From: a phage
Direction: 5' to 3' (one strand)
Length of the DNA stretch: 64,000 nucleotides
Sequence record: PZ019085.1
Part shown: in pieces, positions 7,716-64,000 of the stretch
Position numbering within the stretch: position 1 is the first letter of the stretch
How the letters are laid out: every line of letters begins with the position of its first letter
Translations under genes and position numbers: made by a program
Notes under the pieces: model-generated
What the model was told of the DNA's origin: nothing
What the model saw: the letters and a program-made list of their open reading frames with translations, nothing else
Databases searched by the model: none

Positions 7716-8297
7716 ATGGCTAGTTTAATTTTTACATATGCCGCTATGAACGCTGGTAAGTCTGCTTCATTACTTACTGCCGCACATAACTATAAAGAAC
7801 GTGGCATGGGTGTATTAGTTCTTAAACCGGCTATTGATACTCGCGATTCAAAAGGTGAAATAGTCTCTCGTATTGGTATTCGTCAGGACGCCAATATAAT
7901 TACAAAAGACATGGATATCTTTGAATTCTATAAATGGGCTGCGGCACAAAAGGATATTCATTGTGTATTTGTTGACGAAGCTCAGTTCTTAACTACTGAA
8001 AAGGTGTATCAACTTAGTCGTATTGTTGACGTATACAATGTGCCAGTAATGGCATATGGACTACGAACAGATTTTAAAGGTAATCTATTTGAAGGTTCTC
8101 AAGCATTAATGGCTATTGCCGATAAGCTTGTTGAACTTAAAGGTGTCTGTCATTGTGGTAAAAAGGCCACAATGGTAGCTAGAGTCACGGAAGACGGACT
8201 TCCAATTACGGATGGCAGTCAAATTGAAATTGGTGATACCGATAGATATGTGTCATTATGCCGGAAGCATTGGAATGATTTGACAGGGTTGTTATAA
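7716..8297 (+). CDS. tk: Thymidine kinase
   Basis: P-loop NAGKSASLL, FVDEAQF, C-terminal CHCGKKA zinc ribbon; matches T4 Tk. Confidence 0.95.
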   Translation: MASLIFTYAAMNAGKSASLLTAAHNYKERGMGVLVLKPAIDTRDSKGEIVSRIGIRQDANIITKDMDIFEFYKWAAAQKDIHCVFVDEAQFLTTEKVYQLSRIVDVYNVPVMAYGLRTDFKGNLFEGSQALMAIADKLVELKGVCHCGKKATMVARVTEDGLPITDGSQIEIGDTDRYVSLCRKHWNDLTGLL

Positions 8298-8324
8298 ATA
8301 CTAATATCTAACCAAGAGGTATAT

Positions 8325-8537
8325 ATGCAGCAATTAAACGAAAGACAACTTCGTAATCTTACTGTAACCCAATTGGATGAAATCCGAAGAGAATTAGGAC
8401 ATTCTATTTCTCATTTAAACGAGGATATCCGTCAAACTGGTTCTAAAGCTGATTATACACGCAAGCGCAAGCTGGAAAAATACCTCACAGATGTTAAGGC
8501 CGTCCAAAGGCGAAAAATAAATACTGGCCAAAATTAA
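8325..8537 (+). CDS. Hypothetical protein
   Basis: ORF track. Confidence 0.45.
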
Positions 8538-8549
8538 CAGGAGGCCTAT

Positions 8550-8852
8550 ATGGCCTTAAGAGCGATAGCTGTCATGGCGATGCTGGGGTTTTTTGCAGCA
8601 ACAACTCCTAACGTTGGTACTGCGTACACCGACCCATATTTTGATAACTTTATGGAATCAGGGATTAAAAACGTATATACTTTGTTTGAAATTCAAAATG
8701 TCGAGAATTCTGAAAAATTCTATAAGTATATGGCAAAGCATTACAAAAATAGCCCCTGTGACGATGCATTTGAATGTCATGAACAAGGCATAAAAACTGC
8801 CAGACAATTTGCCGAGTTCATGAAAATAAAATTAGAGCCTACATCTATCTAA
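8550..8852 (+). CDS. Secreted or membrane hypothetical protein
   Basis: N-terminal hydrophobic signal (AIAVMAMLGFFAATTP). Confidence 0.5.
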   Translation: MALRAIAVMAMLGFFAATTPNVGTAYTDPYFDNFMESGIKNVYTLFEIQNVENSEKFYKYMAKHYKNSPCDDAFECHEQGIKTARQFAEFMKIKLEPTSI

Positions 8853-8858
8853 TTTACT

Positions 8859-8887
8859 AGCCCCTTCCTTACGGTTGGGGCTTTTTT
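8859..8887 (+). terminator. Rho-independent terminator
   Basis: Stem agcccc/ggggct with a following T-run. Confidence 0.6.
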
Positions 8888-8897
8888 GCATTTAGCA

Positions 8898-33894: not shown

Positions 33895-36606
33895 ATGAAA
33901 GAATTTTACTTAACGGTTGAACAGATTGGTGATTCAATTTTTGAACGTTACATCGATTCTAACGGCCGTGAACGTACTCGTGAAGTAGAATATAAACCAT
34001 CACTGTTTGCTCATTGTCCAGAAAGTCAGGCTACGAAATATTTCGATATCTACGGTAAGCCGTGTACTCGTAAGTTGTTCGCTAATATGCGTGATGCCTC
34101 CCAATGGATTAAACGCATGGAAGATATCGGACTTGAAGCACTTGGCATGGACGATTTCAAATTGGCGTATTTGTCTGACACTTATAACTATGAAATCAAA
34201 TACGACCATACAAAAATTCGTGTGGCCAACTTCGACATCGAAGTAACATCTCCTGACGGGTTCCCTGAGCCGTCACAAGCAAAACATCCGATTGATGCTA
34301 TCACCCATTATGACTCAATTGACGACAGGTTCTACGTATTTGATCTATTGAATTCTCCATATGGTAATGTGGAAGAATGGTCTATTGAAATCGCTGCTAA
34401 GCTTCAAGAACAAGGTGGTGATGAAGTTCCATCTGAAATTATCGATAAAATCATTTATATGCCATTCGATAATGAAAAAGAATTGTTGATGGAATATCTC
34501 AACTTCTGGCAACAGAAAACTCCTGTCATTTTGACTGGATGGAACGTTGAGTCATTTGATATTCCATATGTGTATAACCGAATCAAGAATATTTTTGGCG
34601 AATCTACTGCGAAACGTTTATCACCACATCGTAAAACTCGTGTTAAAGTTATCGAAAACATGTATGGTTCTCGTGAAATCATCACATTGTTTGGTATCTC
34701 TGTTCTTGATTATATTGACCTTTACAAAAAATTCTCTTTCACGAACCAACCGTCATATTCTCTGGATTACATTTCAGAATTTGAATTGAACGTTGGTAAA
34801 CTGAAATATGACGGCCCTATTTCTAAGCTTCGTGAAAGCAATCACCAACGATATATTTCTTATAACATCATCGACGTATATCGTGTATTGCAAATTGACG
34901 CTAAACGCCAGTTCATTAACTTGAGTTTGGACATGGGTTATTATGCTAAAATTCAGATTCAATCTGTGTTCAGTCCAATTAAAACTTGGGATGCTATTAT
35001 TTTTAATAGCCTTAAAGAACAAAACAAGGTGATTCCACAAGGTCGTTCTCACCCGGTTCAACCTTATCCTGGCGCTTTTGTTAAGGAACCTATTCCAAAT
35101 CGATACAAATATGTGATGAGCTTCGACCTCACATCTCTGTATCCAAGTATTATTCGCCAAGTGAATATTAGCCCAGAAACAATAGCAGGAACGTTTAAAG
35201 TAGCTCCATTGCATGATTATATTAACGCTGTTGCTGAACGTCCTTCTGATGTGTACAGTTGCTCTCCTAACGGCATGATGTATTATAAAGACCGTGATGG
35301 TGTAGTTCCAACTGAAATCACTAAAGTCTTTAATCAACGTAAAGAACATAAAGGTTATATGCTTGCAGCTCAACGTAATGGTGAAATAATTAAAGAGGCG
35401 TTGCATAATCCTAATCTTTCTGTTGATGAACCATTAGACGTTGATTATCGTTTTGACTTCACTGACGAGATTAAAGAAAAGATTAAAAAGTTGTCTGCTA
35501 AATCTCTTAATGAAATGTTGTTTAGAGCTCAACGTACTGAAGTTGCAGGTATGACTGCACAAATTAACCGTAAATTGCTTATCAACTCACTTTATGGTGC
35601 ACTTGGCAACGTTTGGTTCCGTTATTATGATTTACGTAATGCTACTGCAATCACAACATTCGGGCAAATGGCTTTACAGTGGATTGAACGTAAAGTTAAT
35701 GAATATCTGAATGAAGTTTGTGGTACAGAAGGCGAAGCTTTCGTTCTATATGGTGATACAGACTCCATTTACGTATCTGCTGATAAAATTATTGATAAGG
35801 TTGGTGAATCTAAATTCCGTGATACCAACCATTGGGTAGACTTCTTAGATAAGTTTGCACGTGAACGTATGGAACCAGCTATTGATAGAGGTTTCCGTGA
35901 AATGTGTGAATACATGAACAATAAACAACACTTAATGTTCATGGACCGAGAAGCTATCGCTGGACCTCCGCTTGGTTCTAAAGGTATTGGCGGATTTTGG
36001 ACAGGTAAGAAACGTTATGCATTAAACGTGTGGGATATGGAAGGAACCAGATACGCTGAACCTAAGCTTAAAATCATGGGTCTCGAAACACAGAAATCTT
36101 CGACCCCTAAAGCAGTACAGAAAGCTCTTAAAGAATGTATTCGTCGTATGCTTCAAGAAGGTGAAGAATCGTTACAAGAATATTTTAAAGAGTTTGAAAA
36201 AGAATTCCGTCAATTGAATTATATTAGCATCGCGTCGGTATCTTCTGCTAATAACATCGCTAAATATGATGTTGGTGGATTCCCTGGTCCTAAATGCCCG
36301 TTCCATATTCGTGGAATTCTAACGTATAACCGGGCTATCAAAGGTAATATCGATGCACCACAAGTTGTAGAAGGTGAAAAAGTATATGTTCTGCCTTTAC
36401 GTGAAGGAAACCCATTCGGTGATAAATGTATCGCATGGCCTTCTGGCACTGAAATCACAGATTTAATTAAAGACGACGTACTTCATTGGATGGACTACAC
36501 TGTTCTCCTTGAGAAGACATTTATTAAACCACTTGAAGGATTCACATCAGCAGCGAAACTCGATTACGAGAAGAAAGCATCTCTGTTCGATATGTTCGAT
36601 TTTTGA
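33895..36606 (+). CDS. 43: DNA polymerase gp43 (family B)
   Basis: 903 aa; exonuclease motifs FDIE and YNIIDV, polymerase motifs DLTSLYPSI and YGDTDS; N-terminus MKEFYLTVEQIGDSIFERYIDSNGRERTREV recalled as RB69-type gp43. Confidence 0.97.
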   Translation: MKEFYLTVEQIGDSIFERYIDSNGRERTREVEYKPSLFAHCPESQATKYFDIYGKPCTRKLFANMRDASQWIKRMEDIGLEALGMDDFKLAYLSDTYNYEIKYDHTKIRVANFDIEVTSPDGFPEPSQAKHPIDAITHYDSIDDRFYVFDLLNSPYGNVEEWSIEIAAKLQEQGGDEVPSEIIDKIIYMPFDNEKELLMEYLNFWQQKTPVILTGWNVESFDIPYVYNRIKNIFGESTAKRLSPHRKTRVKVIENMYGSREIITLFGISVLDYIDLYKKFSFTNQPSYSLDYISEFELNVGKLKYDGPISKLRESNHQRYISYNIIDVYRVLQIDAKRQFINLSLDMGYYAKIQIQSVFSPIKTWDAIIFNSLKEQNKVIPQGRSHPVQPYPGAFVKEPIPNRYKYVMSFDLTSLYPSIIRQVNISPETIAGTFKVAPLHDYINAVAERPSDVYSCSPNGMMYYKDRDGVVPTEITKVFNQRKEHKGYMLAAQRNGEIIKEALHNPNLSVDEPLDVDYRFDFTDEIKEKIKKLSAKSLNEMLFRAQRTEVAGMTAQINRKLLINSLYGALGNVWFRYYDLRNATAITTFGQMALQWIERKVNEYLNEVCGTEGEAFVLYGDTDSIYVSADKIIDKVGESKFRDTNHWVDFLDKFARERMEPAIDRGFREMCEYMNNKQHLMFMDREAIAGPPLGSKGIGGFWTGKKRYALNVWDMEGTRYAEPKLKIMGLETQKSSTPKAVQKALKECIRRMLQEGEESLQEYFKEFEKEFRQLNYISIASVSSANNIAKYDVGGFPGPKCPFHIRGILTYNRAIKGNIDAPQVVEGEKVYVLPLREGNPFGDKCIAWPSGTEITDLIKDDVLHWMDYTVLLEKTFIKPLEGFTSAAKLDYEKKASLFDMFDF

Positions 36607-36646: not shown

Positions 36647-37282
36647 ATGAAAACTACACCAATCACTATCGCTATTGACGCAATCGTAAAACAAGCTTCA
36701 TCTCTTGCCACTATGGCTAAAGTAATTAGTCAAAACCCTGCCCGATATAATGCTATTCTTGAAACTCTTCGTCGCCCTGGACTGAGTAATTATGAAAGCC
36801 GAGTAATTATTACAGGTGTTGGTAAGAATGCTAATATTGCAACTAAAGCTTCTGAGACATTTGCTTCATTAGGTATTCCTAGCATGTATTTGAACACTGG
36901 GCATTATTCTCATGGTGACGCAGGATTTATTGCACCTAATGATGTATTAGTTCACATCAGTCGTTCTGGTAAGACTGAAGAAATGATAGGTGTTGCTAAA
37001 CATCTTCGTATGATTCGTCCTCAGGTTAAACAGATTCTGTTACATTGTAACCCTGACATTCCACAAGAATACGAAGCTCTTTTTGATTATACGTTCTGTA
37101 CCGGTATCGCGGTAGAAGTTGACGAGAACTCTTTAGCTCCGACGATGTCTACTACATTGTTGTTAGCGCTTATCGATACGTTCGCTATCAACCTTTCATC
37201 TGAACGTGGATTTACCTCTAATGATTTCCTTAAGTTCCATCCAGGCGGTGCACTAGGTGCCATGTTACGAGGCGAGCAATGA
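36647..37282 (+). CDS. SIS-domain sugar-phosphate isomerase (KdsD/GutQ/GmhA-like)
   Basis: ITGVGKNANIATKASETFASLGIPSMYLNTG...HGD...VLVHISRSGKTEEM matches the SIS-domain pattern of arabinose-5-phosphate or phosphoheptose isomerases; no CBS domain. Confidence 0.8.
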   Translation: MKTTPITIAIDAIVKQASSLATMAKVISQNPARYNAILETLRRPGLSNYESRVIITGVGKNANIATKASETFASLGIPSMYLNTGHYSHGDAGFIAPNDVLVHISRSGKTEEMIGVAKHLRMIRPQVKQILLHCNPDIPQEYEALFDYTFCTGIAVEVDENSLAPTMSTTLLLALIDTFAINLSSERGFTSNDFLKFHPGGALGAMLRGEQ

Positions 37283-37422
37283 AAGCAATAACAATAGGAC
37301 TTTTACTATTGATGCTTGTCATGACTATCTATTGGAGCTTAACGGCTCCAGTAATGATTCCAACACTTGTAATTGGATGGATTATGATTGGACTACAAGC
37401 AAAGTATGAATGCTTTAACTAG
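37279..37422 (+). CDS. Possible 47-aa two-TM membrane peptide
   Basis: MKAITIGLLLLMLVMTIYWSLTAPVMIPTLVIGWIMIGLQAKYECFN; ATGA-type overlap with the SIS gene stop. Confidence 0.3.
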   Translation: MKAITIGLLLLMLVMTIYWSLTAPVMIPTLVIGWIMIGLQAKYECFN

Positions 37423-37463
37423 AATAGTGTACAATACTCCTACTTACCAATGAGGACCACAAC

Positions 37464-39149
37464 ATGAAAAAAGCTGTTATTCTTGGTGCTGGACTGGCAA
37501 CTCGTTTGTATCCAATAACGCATCATATTCCTAAGGTGCTTGTTAACTATAAACAAGACACTATTCTGAGCAATTTGTATACAATTTATTCTGACCTTGG
37601 CGCAGATGAAATTATTGTAGTAGTTCATTCAAAATTTGCTGAAACTGTTCGAGCTTATTGTGAGCAAGAAGGGTTCAATGTGACTATTCGTACAGTTGAT
37701 GAAGCATACGGATCTGCTTATGCTCTTGCTAAATTACACAAAGATTTAGACGGCCATAATGTAATTGTTAACTGGTGCGATATTATTCCTGATTTTGGTT
37801 CATGGTCTTGGAATGTTAACGCAATCTATGTTAAGGGTGACGAATGTCGGTATAATTTCGACGGTGAAAATATCACTAACGTAGGTTCAACAGGTGGTAA
37901 TGTTGTAGGAATTTATCAGTTCAAAGACTGGGAATTCTATATGGGTTCTACCGATGAGGAAATTCATGAATACTGCAAAGGACGTGATTTCGTAGAATTC
38001 CTTTACAGCGGCGCATTCAATAAATCAGAGCTTATGAATATAATTGATTTAGGTGATATGCCTAAACTTGAAAAAGCTCATGAAGTTCGTGAACTTAATC
38101 GTAGTTTTAATGCAGTTGAAATTGGTGAAGAAACTGTAACTAAATTCGCATTAACCGAACAGGGCCGAGCTCTTCAGAAAGATGAGATTTCATGGTATCT
38201 TAAAGTGAAATCAGATTCAGTTCCTCAGTTAGTTTCTGTTAATGAAAATAACTTTGAAATGGAACGCATTAAAGGTAAGCCGGCATTTGAATATATTAAA
38301 TCCAAATCAAGTCTTGCTCGTCCACAAATTGTTGATGCAATTTTAGATGCACTGAAATTCAGCACAGACACTTATTTTGTAAGTCCTGAAACTGTTCGTC
38401 GTGATTTCACTAAAGAATTCTATACGAAAGTTATTGATCGTTGTGAAAGTATTCAACCATTGATTGATTCATTTGGTAAAATCACACATGTGAACTACAC
38501 TAAGATTGGACGTCTGAAGCCAATGCTGAAACAAGCTTTAGAACACCTTATTCGTTATCATAACCGTTCTCAGGGACAGTACTCTGTTATTCATGGTGAC
38601 CCTAACTTCAGTAATACTATGATTACTGATAACGGCGAAGTCAAGTTTATCGACCCTCGTGGATATTTTGGTGAAACCAAGATTTACGGGCCAAAATTGT
38701 ATGACGAAGCTAAAGTGCTTTATGCTGTTTCAGGTTATGATGAATTCAATGCTAATCCGACCTGGGGACAGTTTACTATTGATGAAACAACTTGTAATGT
38801 GACTATTAACATCAATCCATTAATTTACAAATATGGAAAGATGAGTTCGTTTAACGAGTATCATCATTTGGCGGTGGCAATTATCTGGATTGCATTGGGT
38901 GGTTATTTCAAGAATAATCCACTTAAAGCGGTAGCCGCATATTATAAAGGTATGGAACTTCTGACTAAGCAATTACGTAACATGGGCCGTGTACTTCAGG
39001 ACGGCTCTATTAGTTATGACGTAGCAGAACCTGTAACGGCTACTCTGATTACAAAAAATCCTGGTAAATGGGTACTAACTGATAAAGAAACTGGTGTTTC
39101 TTATCGTCCAATCGGTGGCGATATCACTCATCAATGGGAACGAATCTAA
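37464..39149 (+). CDS. Bifunctional sugar-1-phosphate nucleotidylyltransferase / APH-like sugar kinase
   Basis: N-terminal ILGAGLATRL (RmlA/GlmU-type NTP-transferase G-x-G-T-R motif); C-terminal HGDPNFSNTMI ... FIDPRG (phosphotransferase/choline-kinase-like catalytic loop). Confidence 0.75.
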   Translation: MKKAVILGAGLATRLYPITHHIPKVLVNYKQDTILSNLYTIYSDLGADEIIVVVHSKFAETVRAYCEQEGFNVTIRTVDEAYGSAYALAKLHKDLDGHNVIVNWCDIIPDFGSWSWNVNAIYVKGDECRYNFDGENITNVGSTGGNVVGIYQFKDWEFYMGSTDEEIHEYCKGRDFVEFLYSGAFNKSELMNIIDLGDMPKLEKAHEVRELNRSFNAVEIGEETVTKFALTEQGRALQKDEISWYLKVKSDSVPQLVSVNENNFEMERIKGKPAFEYIKSKSSLARPQIVDAILDALKFSTDTYFVSPETVRRDFTKEFYTKVIDRCESIQPLIDSFGKITHVNYTKIGRLKPMLKQALEHLIRYHNRSQGQYSVIHGDPNFSNTMITDNGEVKFIDPRGYFGETKIYGPKLYDEAKVLYAVSGYDEFNANPTWGQFTIDETTCNVTININPLIYKYGKMSSFNEYHHLAVAIIWIALGGYFKNNPLKAVAAYYKGMELLTKQLRNMGRVLQDGSISYDVAEPVTATLITKNPGKWVLTDKETGVSYRPIGGDITHQWERI

Positions 39150-39535
39150 TGCATCGTGTAGAAAACATGCTTAATCTTTGTTTTGATGTCGACGATTGTA
39201 TAACAGAGTGGAATAACAATCGTGATTACGTGAACTTCAAGCCAGACGTCGAAATGGTGTCTGCCATTAATGCCCTGTATGATGCAGGGCATACCATAAC
39301 GCTTTACACTGCTCGTGGTATGAAGTCAGTAGGTCCTGGTCGTATAGCAATTGACATTCTCCCAAGTCTGATTCAGAACTTGGCAAACATTGGCTTGAAG
39401 TACCATAATTTGCTAACACATAAACCAGTATATGATTGGATTATCGACGACAAAGCTATGCGTCCCGACGAATTCAAAGCTCTTATGAATAAAGGCGAAT
39501 TCGAAACATTTAAATCATATAAACCGAATCTATAA
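39149..39535 (+). CDS. HAD-superfamily phosphatase-like protein
   Basis: FDVDDCIT near the N-terminus, TARG, WIIDDKA; size typical of KdsC/GmhB-type small HAD phosphatases. Confidence 0.55.
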   Translation: MHRVENMLNLCFDVDDCITEWNNNRDYVNFKPDVEMVSAINALYDAGHTITLYTARGMKSVGPGRIAIDILPSLIQNLANIGLKYHNLLTHKPVYDWIIDDKAMRPDEFKALMNKGEFETFKSYKPNL

Positions 39536-39589
39536 TAATTTAAGTAAGACCTGCAAAAACCATCGCATAAATTAACGCGAGATGCAAAA

Positions 39590-40750
39590 ATGAATACTTT
39601 TAAAATCGGAACGAATTTTGATTTAGCTCTTCTTGATAAAATCGTAGAGCTCAATAAAACTTATCCTAATAGCTTGATAAACGAAGTATACGGCTCTACA
39701 AGAGAAATGGCTTTTGTAGCAGCCAGACCTGATTTTAGGCTTCCTGACGTTGACAAAAAGATGTTAGAAGATTACGTTAAACGTTGTAATGAATTAGGTA
39801 TTTGCTTTAACTATACACTCAACACGATAAATCCCGGTTCAAAAAGAGAACTAGTTGAGTGGAAGAAGAAAGCTATTCAGGATTATGTTCAGTATCTTTG
39901 GTCAATAGGCGTATGGCGTATTACTATCGCTAACCCTGTTGTTATGGAAATTGTTCGTGAAGTCAATAAAGACATTGAGATTGAAGTTTCAACAATTCTA
40001 CATGTCGATGCTGTAACTCAAATCAAATACTTACATGACCAATACAATATCAAAAAGGTCTGCTGTGGAATTCATAAGAACCGTTCAGTTTCTTTCCTGA
40101 AGCGTGCAGCAGAGTTTTGCAATAAGAACAATATAATATTTGAAGTTCTTGTAAATGAGTTCTGTTCTAATGCTGGTAAAGGGTATACAACACATTGTAG
40201 CTATCGTGACTCTTGCTATATTTTCCATAGTACTGATGTTACAGCTGATGATGCTAAATCCTTAAACGGGTATCCAATGCAACACTGCATTAAAGCTCGT
40301 GATACAGACCCATTTAACTGGTTGAGAACTCGTTTTGTTCGTCCTCAAGATTTGAAACTTTATAATGATATTGGTATCACTCAATTCAAAGTTTCAGGAC
40401 GTACAGGTAGCACAGACTACATTTTGAAAGTTCTTGAAGCATACGCTTCTGAAAAGTTTGAAGGTAATTTGTTAGAACTGTGGAAGCCTTTAGAGACTAT
40501 TTTCACTCTTGAAAACGAAACTGAGTTTTCACATACAGTAAATATTGAAACCTCTTTGTTAGATGGCTTTTTAGAAAAAAGGTGGTTCAGGCATCCAGAT
40601 TTCGATTGTGCTAATGAAATCTGTGGGACGACGTGTACATATTGTGAAAGATATTATAAACGTCAGTTATCTAAAAACGGGTTAGCAGAAAACTCTATAT
40701 CTATTATTGATATAACTAACTCTGATGACGCTTTGAGGTACCCAGAATGA
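39590..40750 (+). CDS. Cys-rich hypothetical enzyme in the sugar island
   Basis: 386 aa with multiple conserved-looking Cys clusters (CANEICGTTCTYC, EFCSNAGKGYTTHCSY); fold not assignable by eye. Confidence 0.55.
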   Translation: MNTFKIGTNFDLALLDKIVELNKTYPNSLINEVYGSTREMAFVAARPDFRLPDVDKKMLEDYVKRCNELGICFNYTLNTINPGSKRELVEWKKKAIQDYVQYLWSIGVWRITIANPVVMEIVREVNKDIEIEVSTILHVDAVTQIKYLHDQYNIKKVCCGIHKNRSVSFLKRAAEFCNKNNIIFEVLVNEFCSNAGKGYTTHCSYRDSCYIFHSTDVTADDAKSLNGYPMQHCIKARDTDPFNWLRTRFVRPQDLKLYNDIGITQFKVSGRTGSTDYILKVLEAYASEKFEGNLLELWKPLETIFTLENETEFSHTVNIETSLLDGFLEKRWFRHPDFDCANEICGTTCTYCERYYKRQLSKNGLAENSISIIDITNSDDALRYPE

Positions 40751-41030
40751 TTTCTAGAAAAACTTTTAACCACCAACTTAATGAAGAGATTTTGACTATG
40801 AAACTGAACACTAACGAACAAATTCTTAAAAAGGCCCTTATGGGGGCCTGTTTGAAACCAAAGCGGCTAAAGTGATTAAAGAACCTGTTCAATTGGAATA
40901 CTACGCTGATGCATTTCTTCATAGTGTTCTTGGAAGTATCGATGCTGAAGCTTTACGGTATATCAACACTGCCAAGAAATTCAAATAAGCTTTACGAATC
41001 GAGTATATAATAAATTGTATTGAGGTAAAC

Positions 41031-41747
41031 ATGGGAAAACATAACACAATGAAATATATCAAAGCCGCAGATTTTCAAACCGCATTTAAAGCAGTCAATC
41101 GTGAAATTTTAGAAAACCCGGAATTCGTAACTGATTCTCGTATTGGACGTTGTAATGAAATTGGGTCTATGACAGTAGTTGTTGACACTCCATCGTCATT
41201 CAAAATGACCGACCCACGTATTAACCGCATCTCTTATGAATATGCCGAAGACTTCTGGAAGTTTATGATTTCTGGTGGTACTGATGCAGAAGAAGCGTTT
41301 AAGGCATATCCTAATGTCGCTAAATTTATTTCTAAACCAAAATCGGATGCTTTGCCTGCAAACTTCAACACTTTCTATGGTCCTCGCATTGCGGCCCAAT
41401 TACCAACTCTTCTAAAAGAACTTAAAGAGAAACCTAACTCTCGAAGAGTTGTGTTCCAAATTCTAGAAAGTTCAGATCAGGCTTTGCTTGATTCGGACGA
41501 AACACTTGAATATCCATGTACTGACTCAGTGACTTATTATATTCGTGATGGTAAGCTTTATACCCACTGTCATATGCGTTCTCAGAACTGTGCTGTTGTT
41601 ATGCAGTTGGATTTTTATCTCCAAGGAAAATTACTTCATTATATCGCTAACGAATGCGGTGTAGAAGTAGGTGATTATACTCATACCATGGTAAGTGCCC
41701 ATGTGTTTGAACGTGATTTTGATTATGTTAAAGGATTCCTTGACTAA
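41031..41747 (+). CDS. 42: dCMP hydroxymethylase (thymidylate-synthase superfamily)
   Basis: PCTDSVTYYIRDGK ... MRSQNCAV resembles the catalytic Cys region of T4 gp42; syntenic position. Confidence 0.75.
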   Translation: MGKHNTMKYIKAADFQTAFKAVNREILENPEFVTDSRIGRCNEIGSMTVVVDTPSSFKMTDPRINRISYEYAEDFWKFMISGGTDAEEAFKAYPNVAKFISKPKSDALPANFNTFYGPRIAAQLPTLLKELKEKPNSRRVVFQILESSDQALLDSDETLEYPCTDSVTYYIRDGKLYTHCHMRSQNCAVVMQLDFYLQGKLLHYIANECGVEVGDYTHTMVSAHVFERDFDYVKGFLD

Positions 41748-42646
41748 TGGCTATTTTCCGCGTACCTATCTTGAGTATGCGGTCTTATGAAACTGGTCAG
41801 TATGCTATCCTTAAGGATGGCAACTTCCAACTTCATTTGCACCGTGCTAATCCAGGCGATGTGATTACATATCCACGTAATGCATCTGATATTAAAGAAT
41901 GTGAACGTCTTTTCCCGGAATTTAAGTTTGTTCCATTATGGTATAAAGATAACGCGTATAACACTCGTAAATATTTCTGGTCTGAAAATGAATTTGTGGT
42001 TGATTCATTAATTGCTTATTATGATTGTGATTTTCTAATCACAGATATCACTGGATATGATGGCGCTTTTGACGTAGAATTCAATTTCAATATCACTGCA
42101 GACCCTAATAAACCACGTTTTTATATTGATGAATTCTTAAAAACCGACATGTTGTCTGTTAATCGTTCACTTCAAACTACTGTGTTGAATGAACGTCAAA
42201 AAGAAGTGCTGGTTAACGCAGGTGCAGATGGTAATAAGATTATCGTAACGCAGAAAGTTATACGTCCTTCCGTCATGCAGCGTCTTGTAGGTGATTTGGC
42301 TCCTATTCATCTAGATGGTATTTTTCATCCATTTCGAATTAGTGACCCATGCTATCGTTTTGAACAAGTTGTTGAATGCGCAATTCAATTAGGTCAACCG
42401 CTTTATATAACTGATCCAAATAATAGTTTCGACAGAAATAAGTATCCTGAAGAAGCGCTGATTCGAATTTTTAATCCAACTAAAACTGAGTACTATCAAA
42501 TTCTTAAAGGACGTCCGAAGATTCAATATTTCGAAAATCCTGAAGAAGTATTCCATCCAGGTCTTGGTGAGTTCATCTACTTTAATGCTTTAATTTCTTC
42601 ACCGTATAATATACCTAAATACGAAGATGTCGTAATCGAGGAATAA
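41747..42646 (+). CDS. Hypothetical protein at the position of T4 beta-glucosyltransferase
   Basis: 299 aa; no match to T4 beta-gt noticed. Confidence 0.55.
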   Translation: MAIFRVPILSMRSYETGQYAILKDGNFQLHLHRANPGDVITYPRNASDIKECERLFPEFKFVPLWYKDNAYNTRKYFWSENEFVVDSLIAYYDCDFLITDITGYDGAFDVEFNFNITADPNKPRFYIDEFLKTDMLSVNRSLQTTVLNERQKEVLVNAGADGNKIIVTQKVIRPSVMQRLVGDLAPIHLDGIFHPFRISDPCYRFEQVVECAIQLGQPLYITDPNNSFDRNKYPEEALIRIFNPTKTEYYQILKGRPKIQYFENPEEVFHPGLGEFIYFNALISSPYNIPKYEDVVIEE

Positions 42647-42647
42647 A

Positions 42648-43196
42648 ATGGCTAAAATTATTTTAGTAGACGGCCCGGATAATGCTGGTAAAACAACTTT
42701 CATTAATGACATAATGGAAATTAGTGAAAGATATGTAAAGATTGATTTCCCTAAACGAACAGTTGATGGACGTTTCGATGTTAAGTCTCGAAATGAAGTT
42801 GGCTGTTTCGAAACGATGTTGAATTATTTAGACCCTACTAAGATTTATCTGTTAGACCGTGGATATATTAGTAACTGGGTTTATGGACGTATTCGACAAG
42901 ATGTGGACTCGGTTCTTGACGTTTATGAACAGGATTATGTTCGTCTTTGCCAAAACCATGATGTGTTCACAATTATTTTAACACGTAACGAAATGACTGA
43001 AAGTTTTGAAGACGACCTTATTACTTTGTCTTCATTCGGTTTTAATACAGTCATTTCATATTTTGAAGAGTTTGCAATTCATAACAAAATCCAAACGTAT
43101 CAATTACTTAATCATGATGGTGCTAACAAAGTTATAGGATTTAATGCAAGCGAACGTAATTATTTGATTACAGAAATCATTAAATGGGCTCGTTAA
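42648..43196 (+). CDS. P-loop nucleotide kinase (thymidylate/dNMP kinase-like)
   Basis: Walker A DGPDNAGKTT and LLDRGYIS (DRY-like motif of the TMPK fold). Confidence 0.55.
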   Translation: MAKIILVDGPDNAGKTTFINDIMEISERYVKIDFPKRTVDGRFDVKSRNEVGCFETMLNYLDPTKIYLLDRGYISNWVYGRIRQDVDSVLDVYEQDYVRLCQNHDVFTIILTRNEMTESFEDDLITLSSFGFNTVISYFEEFAIHNKIQTYQLLNHDGANKVIGFNASERNYLITEIIKWAR

Positions 43197-47774: not shown

Positions 47775-48023
47775 ATGGAATTATTCGTAGCTAGTTCAGT
47801 AGCAGTTTTAATCGCAGGTATTGGTTCAATCATCATTTACATGTTGCCTTGGGTAATCGCACTTATTCGTGGCACAAAAAGCACAACAGCAATCTTCTTT
47901 GTATCTTTACTCTTTAACTGGACGATGGTTGGTTGGATTGGAACTTTAATTTGGTCCATCGTTGCCGAAAAGAAATCGGCTCAGCAGCCTCAACAAGTAA
48001 TTATTATTCGCGAAAAAGAATAA
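47775..48023 (+). CDS. Small two-TM membrane protein
   Basis: Hydrophobic segments VAVLIAGIGSIIIY and IFFVSLLFNWTMVGWIGTLIWSIV. Confidence 0.5.
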   Translation: MELFVASSVAVLIAGIGSIIIYMLPWVIALIRGTKSTTAIFFVSLLFNWTMVGWIGTLIWSIVAEKKSAQQPQQVIIIREKE

Positions 48024-51064: not shown

Positions 51065-51586
51065 ATGGCGCACTTTAACGAATGTTCACAACTTATTTCT
51101 GGTGTTGATAAAGCAGAAGAAGCTTATTTTAATGCTCTGATTCATGAAGATAAAGACCCACTGCAGGTAATGCTTGATATGCAGAAATCTTTACAGGTTC
51201 GTCTGGCAAATGACAAGCCTGAATATAACAAACATCCTGATGAATTGGCTACCGCCGGTGATGTTGTTGATTGGCTGCGTAATCAGAAAGATTATATTGA
51301 TGATGAATTCCGTGAACTGCTGACTTCACTTGGCGGTATGAGCAATGGTGAAAAAGCCGCTAGCTCTGTATGGAAGCCGTGGAAAGCACAACATGCTGAA
51401 TATCGTAATCGTCGTATCGATGAACTGTCTCCTGAAGACCAGCTTGAAATTAAATTCGAGATGATTGATATCCTCCACTTTGTTCTGAATATGTTCCAAG
51501 GCCTTGGACTTACTGCTGAAGAAATCTTTAAACTGTATTACCTGAAAAATGCTGAAAACTTCGCACGTCAAGACCGAGGTTACTAA
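51065..51586 (+). CDS. 56: dCTPase/dUTPase gp56 (MazG-like)
   Basis: MAHFNECSQLISGVDKAEEAYF... matches T4 gp56. Confidence 0.85.
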   Translation: MAHFNECSQLISGVDKAEEAYFNALIHEDKDPLQVMLDMQKSLQVRLANDKPEYNKHPDELATAGDVVDWLRNQKDYIDDEFRELLTSLGGMSNGEKAASSVWKPWKAQHAEYRNRRIDELSPEDQLEIKFEMIDILHFVLNMFQGLGLTAEEIFKLYYLKNAENFARQDRGY

Positions 51587-63592: not shown

Positions 63593-64000
63593 ATGAAAGT
63601 TATGTTTATCCCATCTCGTGCAGTCCCATTTAATCCTGACCGTGTACAAGGTGGTCTTGAGGCAGTACATTTAAATGTGTTGAAATATCTTGTGTCCATC
63701 GGTGCTGATATTGATTATATCGGCTTTGATAATGACACGTTTGGTGACTGGAAAGTTACACACCATCCTGTTGGTCATCTGACTAAATTCAGTCTAGGTA
63801 TGAGTTATACTATGGCCCGTAAGATTGTTGAACTAGCCGGCATCCATGAATACGATTTTGTTGTTACTATGGAACCGACTAAACTAACCGTTCAGGCAAT
63901 TAAAGACGCAGGTCTCTCTAAAGTTCATAAGAATTTTATGGCTACGCCGTTTGAACCGGTGTCTCGTGGTATTGTTCAAATTTGGGATCAGACTATCCAG
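63593..64000 (+). CDS. Glycosyltransferase, GT-B/GT4-like (3' partial, runs off the window)
   Basis: MKVMFIPSRAVPFNPDRVQGGLEAVHLNVLKYLVSIGADIDYIGF resembles the GT4 N-terminal domain; ATG 63593 after aagg; no stop within the window. Confidence 0.55.
   Translation, partial: MKVMFIPSRAVPFNPDRVQGGLEAVHLNVLKYLVSIGADIDYIGFDNDTFGDWKVTHHPVGHLTKFSLGMSYTMARKIVELAGIHEYDFVVTMEPTKLTVQAIKDAGLSKVHKNFMATPFEPVSRGIVQIWDQTIQ

Follow-up and report, generated by a model that had tools for sequence, protein, structure and literature searches.

The four adjacent genes described here lie between the DNA polymerase gene and a thymidylate synthase homolog in a 64,000-nucleotide stretch of phage DNA (sequence record PZ019085.1, below called the window), and their closest described counterparts are the gp45-gp55 region of RB69 and the Afh cluster of HY126 (Thomas 2018, Mahler 2025, He 2026, Lee 2026). 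Thomas et al. (2018) reported that RB69 DNA contains arabinose and put forward ORF055c and ORF53_52c of the same module as genes for UDP-arabinose formation (PMC6024577). Lee et al. (2026), using nuclear magnetic resonance, mass spectrometry and 18O2 labelling, identified the RB69 base as arabinose ether-linked to 5-hydroxycytosine, not to 5-hydroxymethylcytosine (hmC) (PMC13326640). The Mosigvirus NP has the same modified bases as RB69, the hmC assignment being called erroneous (PMC13390438), and arabinose is present in the virion DNA of both phages (PMC13326640, PMC13390438). According to He et al., as cited in PMC13326640, the HY126 enzymes convert arabinose-5-phosphate (Ara5P) to arabinose-1,5-bisphosphate (AfhE kinase), then to arabinose-1-phosphate (AfhF phosphatase) and finally to UDP-arabinofuranose (UDP-Araf; AfhE transferase); the citation describes AfhE and AfhF as preparing UDP-arabinose from Ara5P and mentions no U32 protein. 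The labels in Table 1 of PMC13326640 keep an older order, with the phosphatase forming free arabinose ahead of the kinase, while its text adopts the bisphosphate route.

The window phage is an RB69-like Mosigvirus, as the first-pass annotation had suggested. Over 7.3 kb it has 96.9% nucleotide identity to RB69, and Shigella phage Shf125875 and other Mosigviruses match the region with 98% identity. Four open reading frames (ORFs) on the plus strand (36647-37282, 37464-39149, 39134-39535 and 39590-40750) occupy exactly the positions that had been given for the island, and are flanked by DNA polymerase gp43 (33895-36606) and the thymidylate synthase (ThyA) homolog (41031-41747), among replication and nucleotide-metabolism genes. 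Base composition over the block is unremarkable. The block was found in 280 phage records, 152 of which cover at least 80% of its length, and given this conservation it is no chance pattern. Genes and gene order are the same as in the RB69 and Afh clusters, individual proteins share 97-100% identity with their RB69 counterparts, and two window proteins match the solved structures 9iqw and 9iqc; in the sugar genes there is essentially no difference, whereas ORF049 of the window carries a 2-bp frameshift. Because the RB69 and HY126 chemistry is published and the window proteins are nearly identical, the island is already known: it is another Mosigvirus copy of the RB69-like pathway for UDP-arabinose and DNA arabinosylation, and adds nothing new to it. 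We place at roughly 0.85 the probability that it forms the sugar-activation half of a Mosigvirus pathway that converts all virion cytosines to mono- or di-arabinosylated 5-hydroxycytosine. The fourth gene encodes a U32-family iron-sulfur (Fe-S) protein that we tentatively assign to the other half, as an oxygen-independent hydroxylase.

Sugar-activation enzymes

The sugar-branch steps have been shown in close homologs. The first gene (36647-37282, plus strand) encodes a SIS-domain protein of 211 amino acids, homologous to RB69 gp55 (96.7% identity), which domain content and homology assign as a D-arabinose-5-phosphate isomerase acting on ribulose-5-phosphate. It matches Pfam SIS (E = 8e-10) and, with E values of about 1e-30 to 1e-32, the KpsF/KdsD models of NCBIfam (KpsF/GutQ 9e-32, KdsD 4e-30). 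Among PDB sequences the arabinose-5-phosphate isomerases 3etn (1e-24), 5uqi and 2xhz were found, and the PHROG match is 'arabinose 5-phosphate isomerase' (2e-116).

The second gene (37464-39149, plus strand) encodes an AfhE-like bifunctional kinase/nucleotidyltransferase of 561 amino acids, so assigned from domains, motifs and homology, which is 98-99% identical to RB69 ORF53_52c. An NTP_transferase domain (Pfam) covers residues 3-99 to 3-109, depending on the match, and PDB nucleotidyltransferases (1jyk and others) are matched, whereas the C-terminal region resembles APH/choline kinases, with weak Pfam kinase-family matches at residues 308-409. Motifs are GAGLATR at residue 8, HGDPNFSN at 377 and DPRG at 397. 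In line with the findings of He et al. as cited in PMC13326640, the C-terminal kinase is predicted to form arabinose-1,5-bisphosphate and the N-terminal nucleotidyltransferase UDP-arabinofuranose.

The third gene (39134-39535, plus strand) encodes an AfhF-like HAD-superfamily phosphatase of 133 amino acids, homologous to RB69 gp51, which by homology would strip the 5-phosphate from the bisphosphate. There is no Pfam match, but NCBIfam gives 'capsule biosynthesis phosphatase' (4e-13); PDB 9iqw is matched with 100% identity over residues 5-133, and the aspartates of motif I line up with those of 1xpj (5e-10). When read from its first ATG, the ORF overlaps the end of the fusion gene by 16 nucleotides (39134-39149). 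The RB69 annotation and the crystallised construct 9iqw begin at the second methionine (MHRVENM), and this ATG at 39149 may be the true start. The PDB entries 9iqw, 9iqc, 9ir2 and 9iqu probably belong to the work of He et al.

Pfam, NCBIfam and PDB comparisons agree with the first-pass calls of a SIS protein, a nucleotidylyltransferase fused to an APH-like kinase, a HAD-type phosphatase and a cysteine-rich protein. The activated pentose that had been proposed as their joint product holds for the isomerase, the fusion protein and the phosphatase, which serve the transfer of arabinose to DNA cytosines, but probably not for the cysteine-rich protein. The proposed sequence of a phosphatase followed by an anomeric kinase is the reverse of the HY126 route, in which the kinase comes first, as reported from He et al. 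in PMC13326640.

A biosynthetic scheme of the same kind operates in the ADP-L-glycero-beta-D-manno-heptose pathway, with the isomerase GmhA, the bifunctional kinase/adenylyltransferase HldE and the HAD phosphatase GmhB. The logic is shared: a SIS isomerase, an anomeric kinase giving a bisphosphate, a HAD phosphatase removing the distal phosphate and a nucleotidyltransferase, with kinase and transferase fused in both cases. Unlike the heptose pathway, the window genes handle a pentose, activate it with UDP instead of ADP, and supply a product for DNA and not for lipopolysaccharide (LPS). Moreover, the window kinase domain is APH/choline-kinase-like whereas that of HldE is ribokinase-like, so the fusions are analogous and not orthologous.

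The ThyA-like hydroxylase

The gene downstream of the island (41031-41747, plus strand) had been called gp42, a dCMP hydroxymethylase. Many GenBank records use the same name and Pfam labels the protein Thymidylat_synt. It is, however, 99.6% identical to RB69 gp48 and 98% identical to PDB 9iqc, 9ir2 and 9iqu, and it carries the substitutions L143E, D169N and N177D (E. coli numbering). These were read with a gapless register over RSQNCAVVMQLD, where MAFFT had placed a two-residue gap. RB69 gp48 makes 5-hydroxy-dCMP with oxygen derived from 18O2 and binds flavin; it requires reduced FMN (flavin mononucleotide) and is active in E. coli without a U32 protein (PMC13326640). On homology and signature residues the window gene is thus assigned to a ThyA-fold, flavin- and O2-dependent dCMP 5-hydroxylase, not a dCMP hydroxymethylase, and hmC as the glycosylated base is at odds with the published 5-O-arabinosyl-5-hydroxycytosine (PMC13326640, PMC13390438).

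The strategy and the genome position are those of hmC glucosylation in T4 (gp42, gp56, gp1 and the alpha- and beta-glucosyltransferases). Both phages rely on a ThyA-fold enzyme to modify dCMP and on a dCTPase to keep dCTP out, and add the sugar after replication. The window differs from T4 in adding a hydroxyl instead of a hydroxymethyl group, in using flavin and O2 instead of methylene-tetrahydrofolate, in drawing on phage-made UDP-arabinose instead of host UDP-glucose, and in having unrelated glycosyltransferases.

The U32-family protein

The fourth island gene (39590-40750, plus strand; RB69 gp50) encodes a protein of 386 amino acids with a Pfam Peptidase_U32 match of 42 bits (cutoff 22); domain and fold both speak for a U32 TIM-barrel protein. 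In the literature, RB69 gp50 has been labelled 'peptidase' or given 'homologs among peptidases'. All U32 proteins to which a role has been assigned are linked to O2-independent hydroxylation that requires prephenate, in two cases at pyrimidine C5 (PMC5727448, PMC6599085, PMC10990095). Both RlhA and TrhP require prephenate, and E. coli runs paired O2-dependent and U32 routes, namely TrhO/TrhP and UbiIHF/UbiUV. Lee et al. discuss the pyrimidine hydroxylations by RlhA and TrhP without noting that gp50 shares their family (PMC13326640).

The protein contains 13 cysteines, ten of which are invariant among 120 homologs. In an alignment of 149 more distant representatives with the four U32 proteins of E. 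coli, the counterparts of C192, C209 and C233 are C169, C176 and C193 in UbiU and C169, C176 and C192 in RlhA, all of which were shown by experiment to be Fe-S ligands or essential (10.1101/587956, PMC5727448). C192 and C233 are kept in 128 of the 129 full-length distant members and a C-terminal CX4CX3CX2C motif in 118 of them; RlhA too has an essential C-terminal cysteine group (PMC5727448). The KxxGR signature is also conserved in the phage protein. The fourth ligand has no aligned counterpart, the invariant C203 being a candidate, and in another hhalign register C203 and C209 fall on C169 and C176 of RlhA. The conserved cysteines thus correspond by alignment to those that bind the 4Fe-4S cluster in the characterised proteins (CX6CX15-16C...C), and cluster binding is predicted from this.

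Orthology to a characterised U32 subfamily was not found, similarity to the E. coli proteins being weak. Compared with PDB sequences, the single sequence gave no match and the family profile only a spurious match to BIM1. The phage protein has the U32 domain and the Fe-S cysteines in common with the E. coli systems TrhO/TrhP (ho5U34), UbiI-H-F/UbiU-V (ubiquinone) and RlhA (ho5C2501), but it forms a separate subfamily with the C-terminal CX4CX3CX2C motif and without the DUF3656 domain of RlhA. Its proposed substrate is a deoxynucleotide or DNA, whereas the E. coli proteins act on RNA or quinones. Further points of likeness are the pyrimidine C5 hydroxylation of RlhA and TrhP, the occurrence of an adjacent prephenate-forming enzyme in related phages, and the presence of a flavin/O2 enzyme beside a U32 protein, as in ubiquinone synthesis.

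Genomic associations of the U32 gene

In Enterobacter phage Entb_45 (locus L008, 6158-6397), an AroQ chorismate mutase of 79 amino acids is encoded between the U32 gene and the ThyA-like hydroxylase gene. It is translationally coupled through ATGA overlaps, and matches Pfam CM_2 with 40.9 bits (cutoff 27) as well as many NCBIfam chorismate mutase models. Chorismate mutase forms prephenate, and the phage family keeps most of the catalytic residues of EcCM. By tblastn, the Entb_45-type gene was found in 51 phage records, many of them non-Mosigvirus T4-like phages; it is 79-81 amino acids long and mostly annotated as hypothetical. In most of the records listed the match overlaps or adjoins a ThyA-like gene, and a U32/peptidase gene is visible in those where its annotation overlaps the match. 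The 51 records include Serratia phages LC53 and 92A1 and Shewanella phage Thanatos, which carry arabinosyl- or pentosyl-cytosine (PMC13326640, PMC12838424).

A second link to this metabolism is found in an unrelated, uncultured low-GC phage contig (L009), where a DAHP synthase, the enzyme that starts the shikimate pathway, directly follows the U32 gene (8145-8891, E = 3e-70). KdsA, for which the product of the isomerase would have been a substrate, was considered for this DAHP_synth_1 gene and rejected, KDO8P synthase matching with 3e-17 as compared to 3e-70 for DAHP synthase. Upstream, this contig has a GT299-like gene, a SIS gene and an AfhE-like gene, in that order before the U32 gene, and an RmlD-like reductase also belongs to the cluster.

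The metagenomic U32 homologs share 50-56% of their residues with the window protein, while for their neighbours the identity to the window's homologous genes is only 24-30%. Five loci (L011, L012, L016, L017 and L018) have a thymidylate-kinase-like (TMK-like) gene and a GT299-like gene followed by the U32 gene. In six metagenomic loci the U32 gene adjoins a homolog of the first glycosyltransferase, accompanied in five of the six by a TMK-like kinase, and tblastn found no ThyA-like gene in these six within the fetched 7-10 kb flanks or to the contig end. Other neighbours of metagenomic U32 genes are dCMP deaminase, dUTPase/DCD, NT5C, dNK and UDG-like genes and DNA polymerase III alpha.

Some further observations were made at these loci. 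A gene of about 250 amino acids after the U32 gene in L003 and L010 was considered as a hidden ThyA homolog, but no similarity was found. In L011 (5495-12076) the U32 gene lies near a TMK-like kinase, a GT299-like gene, a weak TAGT-family glycosyltransferase, dUTPase/DCD and UDP-galactopyranose mutase, and no ThyA homolog was seen there; the set resembles another kind of glycosyl-hydroxypyrimidine pathway. Close to metagenomic U32 genes, a radical SAM/SPASM protein is met repeatedly (L012 4980-6011, L017 7972-9000, L004 12160-13185, L003 1-249), and L004 has a second, divergent U32 paralog with 22% identity.

The U32 gene is present in 222 phage records, whose named host groups are all Enterobacterales or Shewanella; Acinetobacter is not among the host groups listed. 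The AfhE-type gene is found in 374 records. Of these, 57 are phages of the strict aerobe Acinetobacter, which have the remainder of the pathway. The clusters of Dhakavirus VR5 and Acinetobacter phage DLP1 have no U32 gene, and in them the phosphatase gene is followed directly by the kinase or ThyA gene. Since these clusters lack it, and since AfhE and AfhF prepare UDP-arabinose according to the work cited in PMC13326640, the U32 protein is dispensable for sugar nucleotide formation. The first-pass assignment of the cysteine-rich protein as a sugar-nucleotide enzyme is therefore not upheld, and the gene associations point to base hydroxylation instead.

Proposed pathway and alternative explanations

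In the pathway that we propose, the SIS isomerase would convert host ribulose-5-phosphate to arabinose-5-phosphate, the kinase domain of the fusion protein would phosphorylate C1, the HAD phosphatase would take off the 5-phosphate and the nucleotidyltransferase domain would form UDP-arabinofuranose. In the base branch, gp56 would provide dCMP, which the ThyA-fold enzyme would hydroxylate at C5 using flavin and O2; kinases would then raise 5-hydroxy-dCMP to the triphosphate for incorporation by the polymerase, and the glycosyltransferases encoded at 41747-42646 and from 63593 would add arabinose. The U32 protein is placed in the base branch, where it would hydroxylate C5 of the cytosine nucleotide without O2, the oxygen coming from prephenate. 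Such a route would permit modified DNA in anoxic hosts, in which the O2-dependent enzyme would fail. In enterobacterial phages the U32 protein would serve as a backup to the ThyA-like hydroxylase and in uncultured low-GC phages, where its gene lies with those of the glycosyltransferase and kinase, as its replacement; in some phages a chorismate mutase or DAHP synthase of their own would supply the oxygen donor.

We give an even chance to the proposal that gp50-type U32 proteins are anaerobic, prephenate-dependent hydroxylases forming 5-hydroxy-dCMP (or acting on DNA cytosine) and constitute a phage subfamily of their own. It is put forward because the pathway needs pyrimidine C5 hydroxylation and the known enzyme needs O2, because the U32 gene travels both with prephenate-supplying genes and with those of the glycosyltransferase and the kinase acting on the hydroxylated base, and because E. 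coli pairs O2-dependent and U32 routes.

Several observations weigh against this proposal. The kinship to characterised proteins is distant (hhalign probability 81% to RlhA and 9.9% to TrhP; NCBIfam UbiU E = 9e-4), and the protein belongs to a separate subfamily of 460 representatives at E<=1e-30 with the extra C-terminal cysteine motif. Hydroxylation by a U32 protein has yet to be demonstrated in vitro (PMC10990095), and the gp50-type protein is labelled a 'sugar or heterocycle reductase' in PMC13326640. In the literature covered, which does not include He et al. 2026 and Mahler et al. 2025, we found no role for gp50 and nothing relevant that links U32 proteins, prephenate or chorismate mutase to phage hydroxycytosine; those two papers may assign gp50 differently. 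A chorismate mutase is lacking in the window itself, where the corresponding slot holds a frameshifted ORF unrelated to the enzyme, and host PheA/TyrA would therefore need to supply prephenate. The lack of ThyA-like genes in the metagenomic loci applies to the fetched flanks of up to 7-10 kb on each side. Finally, E. coli Dhakaviruses do without the U32 gene, so that it is at most conditionally useful.

The U32 protein could instead modify the sugar or the nucleotide-sugar, as a reductase- or epimerase-like tailoring enzyme of the sugar branch. Its gene lies directly 3' of the phosphatase gene, in the L009 contig it is found among sugar genes (SIS, AfhE-like, RmlD-like reductase), TIM barrels often bind sugar phosphates, the annotators of Bas46 name it a UDP-arabinose biosynthesis enzyme, and the reductase label of PMC13326640 points the same way. 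We nevertheless regard this role as unlikely: plain arabinose is reported alike for RB69, which has the U32 gene, and DLP3, which lacks it (PMC13326640), and preparation of UDP-arabinose from Ara5P is ascribed to AfhE and AfhF in the citation of He et al., where a U32 protein goes unmentioned. Most metagenomic neighbours, moreover, belong to nucleotide metabolism (dCMP deaminase, dUTPase/DCD, TMK, NT5C, dNK), and tailoring of a sugar leaves the chorismate mutase and DAHP synthase genes unexplained. The same shikimate-pathway neighbours are unaccounted for, at least as regards prephenate supply, if the protein is a redox helper that provides the ThyA-like hydroxylase with reduced flavin or electrons and is no hydroxylase itself. 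The need of the ThyA-like enzyme for reduced FMN, the adjacency or translational coupling of the two genes, and up to two cysteine clusters suited to electron transfer would fit such a helper. However, gp48 functions in E. coli without the U32 protein, and the six loci that combine the U32 gene with a glycosyltransferase gene (and five times a kinase gene) have no ThyA-like gene in the fetched flanks; a helper is held to be somewhat less probable still than a sugar-tailoring enzyme.

For the island as a whole, the first-pass annotation had proposed that all four genes jointly make an NDP-pentose, by isomerase, phosphatase, anomeric kinase and nucleotidyltransferase, for glycosylation of hmC formed by gp42. 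This agrees with the 2018 interpretation of RB69 (PMC6024577), with the step order of the Table 1 labels in PMC13326640 and with the Pfam and GenBank labels of the ThyA-like neighbour. It is contradicted by the ether link to a 5-hydroxycytosine that derives from the ThyA homolog (PMC13326640) and by the rejection of the hmC assignment in PMC13390438. The window enzyme has D169N and shares 99.6% identity with the gp48 that was tested, the kinase precedes the phosphatase where PMC13326640 cites He et al. in its text, and functional clusters exist without a U32 gene; as the published chemistry has already refuted the hmC scheme for RB69, we consider it very improbable here. Even less credit is due to an island that acts on the host surface (LPS, Kdo or capsule) and not on phage DNA. 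The KdsD/KpsF type of the isomerase, known from Kdo and capsule pathways, and the 'capsule biosynthesis phosphatase' match would suit it, but arabinose is present in RB69 and NP virion DNA, homologous glycosyltransferases in purified form use UDP-Araf to elongate the arabinose chains of RB69 DNA in vitro, and the genes are embedded among those for replication and nucleotide metabolism. LPS-directed enzymes, which had been named as an outcome that would overturn DNA glycosylation, are thus contradicted by the published RB69 and NP chemistry.

Other genes of the base branch

The first-pass annotation had noted that a T4-type glucosyltransferase is lacking, and among the eight ORFs between polymerase and uvsX there is indeed no match to the alpha- or beta-type family. 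It had overlooked a dedicated candidate directly downstream of the ThyA-like gene (41747-42646, plus strand), a putative first DNA arabinosyltransferase that is 98-99% identical to RB69 gp46:47, and a second one from 63593. RB69 gp46:47 was modelled as a GT-B fold (Table 1 of PMC13326640), and purified homologous glycosyltransferases lengthen arabinose chains on RB69 DNA in vitro with UDP-Araf (PMC13326640). The window protein has no match among Pfam, NCBIfam or PDB sequences, even with a 7- or 10-member alignment, and a single-sequence AF2 model (pLDDT 36.8) leaves the GT-B fold unconfirmed. The second arabinosyltransferase (63593-64000, plus strand) is cut by the window end, with 136 of 366 codons present; this N-terminus is 99.3% identical to residues 1-136 of RB69 ORF003c, for which the role was described (PMC6024577, PMC13326640).

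A thymidylate-kinase-like P-loop kinase is encoded at 42648-43196 (plus strand) and corresponds to RB69 gp45 (97.8% identity). It matches PHROG 'thymidylate kinase' (8e-45) and, weakly, the NCBIfam dTMP kinase, and from homology it probably phosphorylates the modified dNMP. The gp56 dCTPase homolog (51065-51583, plus strand; 99.4% identical to RB69 gp56) would supply dCMP and remove dCTP.

Small open reading frames and the imm slot

The island had been placed at the position of T4 imm, and this is correct: the arabinosylation module fills the old imm slot, and an imm homolog is found instead at 47775-48020, about 11 kb downstream of the T4 position. Between the isomerase and fusion genes, a conserved ORF (37279-37422, plus strand; RB69 ORF054c) encodes a hydrophobic, membrane-like protein of 47 amino acids with 100% identity to its counterpart in RB69, 64% in Entb_45 and 58% in VR5. 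It belongs to PHROG 3610 (unknown function), and in Dhakavirus VR5 the homolog directly follows imm; the protein probably stands outside the arabinose pathway. Neither this ORF nor the small one that follows the U32 gene figures in the first-pass annotation.

Downstream of the U32 gene, at 40747-40988 (plus strand), RB69 ORF049c is represented by a split ORF in the slot that chorismate mutase occupies in related phages. Comparison with Bas46 showed a 2-bp expansion of a G-run (ATGGGGGCC in the window, ATGGGCC in Bas46) that divides the frame into ORFs of 42 and 38 amino acids, as compared to 79 amino acids in RB69 and Bas46. Truncated versions of 47-58 amino acids are common in other assemblies, and the split could reflect real decay, homopolymer-tract variation or a sequencing error. 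A degenerate chorismate mutase was considered for ORF049 and rejected, as there is no Pfam match and comparison with the phage chorismate mutase family gave a BLASTP E value of 6.9 and an hhalign probability of 0.09%.

Implications

The island itself was established between 2018 and 2026, whereas the association of the U32 gene with chorismate mutase is a concrete, testable lead. If the U32 protein is a hydroxylase, prephenate-dependent hydroxylation would extend from RNA and quinones to DNA precursors, with the phage protein as the first U32 enzyme of this kind, and its soluble nucleotide substrate would be much easier to work with than ribosome precursors, tRNA or polyprenyl quinones. The gene would also offer a predictor of DNA modification based on 5-hydroxypyrimidines in uncultured phages without the ThyA-type marker. 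For the biology of these phages, a U32 hydroxylase would explain how gut phages keep an anti-restriction DNA modification where the known hydroxylase has no O2.

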